A DNA stretch of 64,000 nt from sequence record PQ505080.1, one strand, 5' to 3'. The position numbers were made by a program, and so were the translations under genes. This stretch comes from Escherichia phage HMD-6. The notes under the pieces were generated by a model that was not told the origin of the DNA, searched no databases, and saw only the letters and a program-made list of their open reading frames with translations. Numbering within the stretch: the first letter of the stretch is position 1; every line of letters starts with the position of its first letter. Shown here piece by piece: positions 50,430 through 51,670 of the stretch.

Positions 50430-50909
50430 TTAATCCAGTACTGTGCCTCCGGCTTTTCGGAAGACGTCCAGCATCTTCTCTATGTTTTCTACACGCTGAT
50501 CATACAGTTTACCAGCCCCCGGTGGTGGTGGGAAACTTGCCCAACGGCTACGGCATTTATAGATAGCTGAACGGATCCTTCCTTCATAAATGTCATCAAG
50601 GGCTTTACATTCGCTGATCAACTGTTTTGCTATGGCATCCTGACTTGCCTGACCAAAATCTCTTAAGCCAAGCTGCTTCATGTAATGCTTAGCGTATTTC
50701 TCCAGAATTTGGTATCTGCCAAATGCTGAAGAGGTAAGGCCTGGTCTTAATTTGACATAAATACCGGGATGCCTGCTGAGATCCTCTATGTATTTTCCAC
50801 CAACAAGGATGTGGTACGAAGCATCTTCGCCACCATACCTGTCAGTACCTTCTGAGTGTGAAATCATCGAAAAAAATGCTCTCAATTGTACATTTTTATC
50901 TAGCTTCAT
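50430..50909 (-). CDS. endolysin, lambda R-like lytic transglycosylase
   Basis: LRAFFSMISHSEGTD...ILVGG...GRYQIL...QLGLRDFGQASQDA...AGGTVLD tracks the lambda R lysozyme sequence. Confidence 0.8.
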   Translation of the reverse strand: MKLDKNVQLRAFFSMISHSEGTDRYGGEDASYHILVGGKYIEDLSRHPGIYVKLRPGLTSSAFGRYQILEKYAKHYMKQLGLRDFGQASQDAIAKQLISECKALDDIYEGRIRSAIYKCRSRWASFPPPPGAGKLYDQRVENIEKMLDVFRKAGGTVLD

Positions 50910-51670
50910 TTAAACCTCCGATTAAACCACTCTTCCAACGAATCATCATGTTTTGCATATTCTGCGGATTTTCTGACGCATACAGCATCCCACCACTCCG
51001 TGTATTGCCCCAAATGATACCTTTTGCTGTTTTCAGCAATCTGAACTTGCCACTTGTCAGTATCGTGTCTCCATTTAACACCTGTACACCCAGATGTGTT
51101 ATTAAGTTTTAGTATTTTGCCTTTATAAGTACCTGAAACTAGCTGTTTTCTTGCCTCTACAGCCTCATCTTTGGTCTTAAAGTACCCAGCAAACCTATCT
51201 CCTTCGAGGGTGTTATATACTGCATACCATAAACCACATTTCTTATAAACTCCTAAGTTACCGTGCGGGTTATTTTTCGGGAGTAAATTATTTCTTATAC
51301 GGTCCTTGTTGTTATCACTGTAGGTGCCCATAGAAAGATTTTCTATATTATCCTGGCCTTTTATATCATTTAAATGCCTGACAAGAAAGTTTTTTGTTAA
51401 AGAGTTATAAAACATGTCGTAAATAATTCTATGACGCTTCTTATCACCACCTTTATGAGAGTTGATTATAACATACCCTTGTGCATCATTACAACCAGCT
51501 TTTGTGCCAGCTTTTATGAAGAGTTGATTTTTACCTCGGCCTCTATAATGATTCTTTGTCCAAACTAGCTCCCCATCTTTGTACCAAAATGCAAAATTAT
51601 CATTGAAGAAGAAATTAATCATTTTTTTTTTACTCTCCAATCTACTTATAGCATATCCGATCAACAACAC
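50906..51670 (-). CDS. free-standing HNH endonuclease with two AP2-like DNA-binding domains
   Basis: HRIIYDMF...RHLNDIKGQDNIENL (HNH); GVYKK.GLWYA and GVKWRHDTDKWQ (AP2-like). Confidence 0.7.
   Translation of the reverse strand: MLLIGYAISRLESKKKMINFFFNDNFAFWYKDGELVWTKNHYRGRGKNQLFIKAGTKAGCNDAQGYVIINSHKGGDKKRHRIIYDMFYNSLTKNFLVRHLNDIKGQDNIENLSMGTYSDNNKDRIRNNLLPKNNPHGNLGVYKKCGLWYAVYNTLEGDRFAGYFKTKDEAVEARKQLVSGTYKGKILKLNNTSGCTGVKWRHDTDKWQVQIAENSKRYHLGQYTEWWDAVCVRKSAEYAKHDDSLEEWFNRRFK

Follow-up and report, generated by a model that had tools for sequence, protein, structure and literature searches.

What kind of gene parts the DNA ligase gene from the lysozyme gene in a small number of rV5-like Escherichia coli phages, and how does it come to lie there? 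The locus is found in a 64,000-nucleotide (nt) stretch of Escherichia phage HMD-6 (PQ505080.1), a Vequintavirus (rV5-like E. coli myophage); this whole stretch is called the window, and coordinates refer to it unless a contig is named. The gene, at 50906..51622 on the minus strand, is probably a free-standing HNH-AP2 homing endonuclease gene (HEG), as a first-pass annotation of the window had proposed: an exact and sporadic insertion, a tract shared between phages, decayed copies and purifying selection all point to this reading. Two public records already carry the gene as 'putative homing endonuclease'.

The nuclease gene and its junction with lysozyme

The HEG lies where the first-pass annotation placed it, between an ATP-dependent DNA ligase gene (51776..53059; Pfam DNA_ligase_A_M and OB_2) and a lysozyme gene (50430..50909, minus strand; PHROG 90 'endolysin', E=6e-39), both intact. 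The lysozyme is a 159-amino-acid (aa) protein of an allele termed here 'W-type'. Read from a GTG, the minus-strand open reading frame (ORF) would span 50906..51670 and encode 254 aa. That ORF is real and its end at 50906 stands, but the start given in the first-pass annotation, 51670, does not: the HEG almost certainly begins at the ATG at 51622 and encodes 238 aa, an HNH_3 core followed by two AP2-fold repeats (identified by ORF, Pfam and PHROG). This start is indicated by a GGAGAG ribosome-binding site 10 nt upstream of the ATG, by the 717-nt coding sequence annotated in the public records of phages EduardKellenberger, WM and YP-6, by orthologues in other lineages, whose N-termini read MINFFF or MKINFFF and whose DNA homology begins at 51620-51627, and by the homology of 51624-51670 to ligase-lysozyme intergenic DNA of phages that do not have the HEG. 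Between the GGAGAG site and the ATG lies a spacer of one T and nine A (51623-51632), and the length of this homopolymer varies among carriers: T plus A9 in the window, WM and the metagenome contig L022, A7 in EduardKellenberger, A6 in YP-6 and A5 in JEP1. Slippage here would alter the spacing of the start codon and might in this way tune translation of the nuclease.

At the other end, the HEG and the lysozyme gene share 4 nt: the TGA that stops the HEG (50908..50906) and the ATG that starts lysozyme (50909..50907) together form ATGA at 50906-50909. The first-pass annotation had recognized this overlap with its ends inverted, as one between the start of the HEG and the stop of lysozyme. A GGAGG ribosome-binding site for lysozyme (50915..50919, minus strand) is present within the last HEG codons, and it is kept in the deletion derivatives JEP1 and V18 as well as in orthologous cassettes of the uncultured phage contigs L010, L012 and L016. 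A promoter and terminator scan of the coding strand of the ligase-nuclease intergenic region gave nothing convincing, while a conserved promoter-like sequence, TTGACA-17-TATTGT, is found just beyond the lysozyme stop. An Rfam search for an intron at the HEG locus returned none, even at E<=0.01; the HEG is an ORF of its own, outside any intron or intein, and is in this sense free-standing.

An HNH core followed by two AP2 domains

The HNH motif reported in the first-pass annotation is borne out by Pfam. HNH_3 (PF13392) matches aa 62-105 (51308..51439, minus strand) at 25.9-26.1 bits against a gathering score of 24.8 (E=7e-6), which places the protein in the family by the curated cut-off; orthologues reach 30-32 bits, and PHROG 99 'HNH endonuclease' matches with E=3e-36. 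In an alignment of 13 full-length relatives, H64, H83, N95 and N104 are invariant. The family profile matches the structure of I-HmuI (1u3e) with E=1e-6, aligning the His/Asn/Asn positions of the VDH...NL...N pattern, and an AlphaFold2 model places strands at 80-83 and 96-99 and a helix at 101-110, a beta-beta-alpha arrangement at aa 80-110. The beta-beta-alpha-metal fold with conserved His and Asn is present, apart from one substitution, Arg for Asp, which is taken up below. The core is predicted to nick or cut DNA in a metal-dependent manner.

The two AP2-like repeats described in the first-pass annotation required other tests, since Pfam AP2 (PF00847) applied to the HEG protein alone is not significant (E=0.7-3; 8.7-10.6 bits against a cut-off of 33.3). 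It is through homologues, the family profile and structural comparison that both repeats are upheld. A word-indexed protein search returned only 5 close relatives, whereas an exhaustive HMMER representative search collected 4956 and reached AP2-bearing homologues. The segment aa 173-222 is present 3-10 times in many of these 4956 relatives. Beyond its orthologue group, no relative of the HEG protein exceeds 38% identity; among such proteins, P0007 (38% identical) scores 35.0 bits against Pfam AP2 in the aligned region, and P0013 (34% identical) scores 45.1 bits in two stretches, both above the 33.3 cut-off. A single-sequence Protein Data Bank search with the HEG protein gave no match, and only the family profile succeeded, matching the plant AP2/ERF structures WRI1 (7wq5, E=1e-4), ERF096 (5e-3), TEM1 (0.01) and AtERF1 (0.03), as well as, weakly, a Plasmodium AP2 domain (E=0.15).

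The AlphaFold2 model of the HEG protein (mean predicted local distance difference test, pLDDT, 78) contains two beta-beta-beta-alpha units at aa 125-163 and 182-225, with a local pLDDT of 77-90. The first is built from strands 125-128, 131-138 and 141-148 and helix 151-163, the second from strands 182-185, 190-197 and 200-207 and helix 210-225, so that a three-stranded antiparallel sheet on one helix occurs in both. Foldseek matched the model to tandem-AP2 proteins in the Protein Data Bank (Toxoplasma AP2-domain proteins, WRINKLED1 and PfSIP2), with a root-mean-square deviation of 1.5 A over 42 columns to the AP2 domain of TEM1 (probability 1.00), a probability of 1.00 for WRI1 and one of 0.93 for I-HmuI. 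Repeat 1 is accordingly assigned to aa 117-164 (51131..51274, minus strand) from the family profile, the model and Foldseek, and repeat 2 to aa 173-226 (50945..51106, minus strand) from its recurrence in homologues, the Pfam AP2 match of P0007 and the model. Ultimately, the architecture is an I-HmuI-like HNH core plus two AP2 domains, the latter recognized by profile and structure and not by single-sequence Pfam. The tandem AP2 domains would be expected to recognize a specific DNA site.

Sporadic distribution and the empty site

The locus was compared across about 120 related Vequintavirus phage records. Over 3.7 kilobases (kb) around the HEG the window is 99.4% identical to phage YP-6 and 99.2% to VB-EcoM-WM (WM). 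An intact HEG occurs in three of these records, YP-6, WM and EduardKellenberger, each with a protein 100% identical to that of the window. JEP1 has a shortened HEG and V18 (two records) the 3' end alone; the other records match the intergenic part only. Conservation at this position in all relatives, which the first-pass annotation had named as fatal to its reading, is not what is seen, as the HEG is absent from about 95% of the Vequintavirus records; set beside relatives without the insertion, the locus shows what would be expected of a homing endonuclease gene. With the metagenome contig L022 as a fifth intact Vequintavirus carrier, five of seven Vequintavirus copies are intact (window, YP-6, WM, EduardKellenberger and L022, but not JEP1 and V18).

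The HEG-less phages FV3, FFH2, ECP32 and CarlMeissner reveal the empty site. They read ...GGAGAGTATGAAAA-ATG(lysozyme) where the window reads ...GGAGAGT-A9-ATG(nuclease); their homology with the window resumes at 51624, and the lysozyme ATG takes the position of the HEG ATG. This alignment indicates that the HEG separates the lysozyme ATG from its old ribosome-binding site with exact boundaries, and it identifies the GGAGAG site at 51633..51638 (minus strand) as the ancestral lysozyme site now serving the HEG. The HEG thus appears to use the old lysozyme ribosome-binding site and to give lysozyme a new one. Presence of the gene is sporadic even at short range: EduardKellenberger carries it and CarlMeissner does not, and the two are assigned to one species.

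A shared block in different phage backgrounds

An alignment of ten genomes over 6.7 kb shows that the HEG is part of a larger shared block. Among the window, EduardKellenberger, JEP1 and V18, a block of about 1.28 kb (50430..51711, minus strand), delimited by the divergence of carriers in their flanks, differs by only 0.5-0.7%, whereas between carriers divergence rises to 3.8-5.9% in the 1.3 kb of flanking DNA on either side (Fisher p from 4e-7 to 1e-11). Past 51712, the HEG-less phage most similar to a carrier changes from one carrier to the next; the flanks are best matched by FFH2 in V18 (98-99%), by FV3 in the window (97-99%) and by ECP32 in EduardKellenberger (98-99.5%). The block includes, besides the HEG, the proximal 88 nt of the ligase-lysozyme intergenic region (51624..51711, minus strand), co-transferred with it and 98-100% identical among carriers as against 71-78% to HEG-less phages. 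It also includes the whole W-type lysozyme allele, which is 64-68% identical in DNA and 68-73% in protein to the common 'R-type' allele of HEG-less Vequintaviruses. The tract ends where homology of high identity resumes, at the lysozyme stop on one side and near 51711 on the other. A near-identical block with divergent flanks is the pattern expected if one element, together with a co-converted tract, entered several backgrounds. The first 8 codons of the window's lysozyme allele are closer, by alignment count, to the common allele (21 of 24 nt) than to the other W-type alleles (16 of 24 nt), no more than a hint at a role of the start region.

Decayed copies

Three kinds of decay are seen. In JEP1, 426 nt were lost in frame by recombination between 9-nt direct repeats, AGCTAGTTT, which lie at 51562-51570 and 51136-51144 and bound the stretch 51136..51570 (minus strand) in the window. 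The 96-aa product joins the N-terminal 20 residues to AP2 repeat 2, without the HNH domain and AP2 repeat 1, and the nuclease ribosome-binding site has mutated to GAAGAG. In V18, 831 nt are gone, and ligase residue 409 now runs on in frame into the final 31 codons of the HEG, which gives a 440-aa ORF. The third kind, a single nonsense codon in AP2 repeat 2, occurs in the uncultured contig L019. JEP1 and V18 are isolated, propagating phages, which indicates that the nuclease is dispensable, and both retain the HEG 3' end with the lysozyme ribosome-binding site and the ATGA overlap.

The V18 fusion also alters the ligase (L003, 2906-4228), which has exchanged its last 18 residues for 31 C-terminal residues of the nuclease. 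As this isolate is viable, the C-terminal tail of the ligase seems dispensable or replaceable.

The nuclease-lysozyme pair in other lineages

Proteins 78-87% identical to the window nuclease are encoded in uncultured phage contigs, each directly followed by a 159-aa lysozyme. These lysozymes are 86-88% identical to that of the window in L010, L012 and L016 and 92% in L023. Besides the site after the ligase gene in Vequintavirus, the pair occupies two further neighbourhoods. In the first (L010-L015, L018 and L019), it follows a DUF8047 gene and precedes a 61-aa gene and nrdD; in the second, on rV5-like contigs of 130-139 kb (L016/L020, L023 and L024), it follows a 184-aa metallophosphatase-like ORF. 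DNA homology with the window extends from the nuclease ATG to the lysozyme stop, and in L016 through the next gene, which encodes a small membrane protein. A megablast of L010 against the phage collection aligned only the nrdD region, about 25% of L010, with an identity of about 73% to Vequintaviruses, and gave no direct donor of the block. The L010 lineage has a nuclease-rich neighbourhood (L010 7497-8045 and 9470-10405; L013 2570-3523), in which nrdD is split by HNH_3 genes (or NUMOD4 plus HNH_3 genes) and a T5orf172/DUF723 gene lies nearby.

A possible, though tentative, reading of this arrangement is that the mobile unit is a two-gene cassette of nuclease and cleavage-immune lysozyme allele, which replaces the resident endolysin of unrelated phage lineages. 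Because the lysozyme ribosome-binding site and start overlap lie inside the last nuclease codons, the HEG 3' end could not be lost without losing lysis. As part of such a cassette, this 3' end may secure its own retention, of which the remnants in JEP1 and V18 would be the visible outcome.

Homing as the probable reading, and its alternatives

If the gene is a homing endonuclease gene, the nuclease would be translated from the former lysozyme ribosome-binding site and, in a mixed infection with a HEG-less Vequintavirus, would cut or nick the lysozyme locus of that second genome. Its target would most likely be the start of lysozyme or the immediate surroundings, or else a site inside the common allele. 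The break would then be repaired by recombination with the carrier genome as template, and the HEG would be copied along with the 88 nt of intergenic DNA upstream of it and all of the linked lysozyme allele; the entire diverged tract would be copied because, it is proposed, recombination resolves only where identity is high. Expression, cleavage, the location of the target and the immunity of the linked lysozyme allele are predictions drawn from comparative sequence data.

Several observations weigh against homing, in addition to the single-sequence AP2 result above. An Arg precedes the catalytic His (VRH), where I-HmuI and many relatives have Asp (VDH), and with this exchange the metal site could be altered or lost. 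Computation was unable to locate the cleavage or target site. Furthermore, the HEG or a remnant of it lies upstream of all W-type lysozymes found (at least 85% protein identity), and this tight linkage could reflect a functional partnership. Phage records, IMG/VR and metagenome scans yielded no W-type lysozyme without HEG or remnant, that is, no empty W-type site: the IMG/VR scans added one nuclease locus and no new W-type lysozyme locus, and the metagenome scan found nine lysozyme loci, with no W-type lysozyme lacking the nuclease gene. Finally, ordinary recombination, or selection acting on the lysozyme allele, could account for the spread of the block, and the nuclease would then be carried along as a passenger.

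This last alternative, in which the 1.28-kb block spreads by general homologous recombination, the W-type lysozyme is possibly advantageous and the nuclease is inactive or irrelevant, is unlikely but survives best. Block boundaries that coincide with the resumption of high-identity homology are what any recombination would leave, JEP1 and V18 hold on to the W-type lysozyme after loss of the nuclease domain, and the Arg before the catalytic His fits an inactive enzyme. Against this, dN/dS (the ratio of nonsynonymous to synonymous divergence) for the HEG, whose orthologues are 81-87% identical, is 0.12-0.19 between four lineages at a dS of about 0.5-0.7, which indicates purifying selection that has kept the protein functional, and all invariant HNH residues are present. 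A gene that contributes neither to its own spread nor to phage fitness should also decay everywhere, yet five of the seven Vequintavirus copies are intact. Moreover, identity at third codon positions between lineages is significantly higher in the HEG (74-76%) than in the adjacent lysozyme (52-63%). This lower divergence suggests that the HEG runs on a schedule of its own and may also move independently of lysozyme over long periods, although composition effects may lie behind the difference.

It is improbable that the nuclease is mainly a weapon of competition, which cuts the genomes of co-infecting rival phages (exclusion) and is copied only as a by-product. The architecture and distribution of the gene would be the same as for homing, and T4 Seg nucleases are known to cause marker exclusion. 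HEGs have in addition been linked to conflicts between phages and satellites (PMC10448857). That a near-identical block stands in several backgrounds nevertheless shows that the gene itself is copied; for the rest, sequence data would look the same under exclusion and under homing.

Very improbable is a domesticated DNA-binding partner or regulator, whose AP2 domains would control expression of the lysis gene and so explain its linkage and translational coupling to the W-type lysozyme. The HEG does lie directly upstream of this lysozyme in every context, with an overlap of 4-10 nt, and JEP1 keeps an in-frame product with AP2 repeat 2. But about 95% of Vequintaviruses manage without the HEG, V18 is viable with just 31 C-terminal codons, L019 carries its nonsense codon in AP2 repeat 2, and the HNH catalytic residues are conserved. 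A terminase-associated HNH role was rejected, because the HEG lies far from the terminase gene and most relatives lack it. The probable reading is still that of a free-standing homing endonuclease gene.

Other elements in the region

The first-pass annotation had linked the HEG to two group I introns and to an active load of mobile elements. One intron is confirmed at the Rfam gathering score (62809-63087, plus strand; 81 bits, E=4e-19) and maps by coordinates into the 'terminase family protein' region of phage WM. A match at 34959-35193 (minus strand), probably the second intron meant there, falls short of the gathering score of 50 with 32.9 bits (E=1e-4). Its position is in the nrdD region, for which WM annotates two nrdD pieces with an 'HNH homing endonuclease' between them. 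A mobile-element load agrees with the terminase-region intron, with the HNH gene annotated in the split nrdD and with the general picture of the Vequintavirinae (PMC7344957).

The lysozyme gene is a hotspot for elements of the HNH-AP2 class. FV3 (L002) carries a different HNH_3 plus AP2-like gene (2436-3119, minus strand), 30% identical to that of the window, on the other side of its lysozyme gene (3112-3600). The FV3 lysozyme is itself chimeric: its 5' two-thirds belong to the common type, and the 3' remainder nearly matches the L010 type. A third lysozyme allele (45% identity) occurs in the metagenome Vequintavirus L030 (1064-1561 and 1616-2377), where a third HNH-AP2-like ORF comes after it, and in L029, where no such ORF accompanies it.

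A second HNH protein, Cys-rich and 154 aa long, is encoded at 49686-50150 (minus strand; PHROG 5200, E=2e-72, no Pfam hit). Its gene is found at the same position in most Vequintaviruses examined, which makes it probably not a sporadic homing gene, and it is shortened in V18. Next to it, CarlMeissner has an inserted C5-cytosine methyltransferase gene, and ECP32 has an extra 93-aa ORF nearby. A cluster of six tRNA genes lies at 60477-61286 (plus strand; Rfam gathering score), and two more tRNA-like matches (tRNA-Sec model) fall below the gathering score, one of them overlapping one of the six. The tRNAs annotated for the corresponding region of WM are Arg, Tyr, Ser, Thr and Met.

Significance

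The HEG is a known kind of element, an ordinary selfish nuclease gene that is uncharacterized, and it leaves knowledge of homing endonucleases unchanged. What the locus offers is a probable case of intronless homing among rV5-like phages in nature, with empty, intact and three kinds of decayed site in sequenced isolates, and with an essential lysis gene exchanged for an allele about 30% different in protein. Such a series and the wholesale replacement of a lysozyme allele are useful, not surprising. For the engineering and comparison of therapeutic E. coli phages, they explain why a few Vequintaviruses carry an endolysin sharply different from that of near-identical relatives, and they mark the ligase-lysozyme junction as a recombination hotspot.

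Comparison with known systems

The combination of HNH and AP2 domains defines a recognized family of homing endonucleases (PMC10448857, citing Magnani et al. 2004), and phage nuclease genes are found at boundaries of genetic exchange, adjoining essential genes (PMC10448857). The window gene agrees with this family and with the HEGs of phage ICP1 in its N-terminal HNH and C-terminal AP2 domains, its free-standing state and its position beside an essential gene at an exchange boundary. It differs from the ICP1 'IPA-HNH' HEGs, which are too divergent for the Pfam HNH_3 profile (Barth et al. 2023, PMC10448857), in that its product matches canonical HNH_3 directly and has two AP2 repeats. A literature search found no experimental study on any member of the HEG orthologue group.

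Many free-standing and intron-borne HNH genes occur in the Vequintavirinae, and in Pectobacterium phage CB7, of the same subfamily, an HNH gene lies in an intron of the large terminase gene that is spliced (PMC7344957). The window likewise has a split nrdD, and its terminase region contains a group I intron; the CB7 paper describes neither this HEG nor a lysozyme-linked one (PMC7344957).

The window protein shares with I-HmuI of Bacillus phage SPO1 (1u3e) an HNH_3-type core with conserved His/Asn/Asn positions. I-HmuI is intron-encoded, nicks one strand and has C-terminal DNA-binding modules other than AP2. The HEG of the window, in contrast, is free-standing and encodes Arg rather than Asp before the catalytic His.

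A parallel for the locus as a whole comes from phage T4, where SegF/gene 56 and SegG/gene 32 are reportedly cases of intronless homing, in which cutting of the adjacent gene in a HEG-less relative sets off co-conversion. SegF and SegG are GIY-YIG enzymes for which cleavage and localized marker exclusion were shown experimentally, whereas the protein here is of the HNH-AP2 type and its cleavage and exclusion are predicted from comparative genomics alone. Despite these differences, in both settings a free-standing endonuclease gene lies between conserved genes and the neighbouring allele is replaced together with gain of the HEG, the analogue here of SegF/SegG co-conversion being replacement of the whole lysozyme allele.

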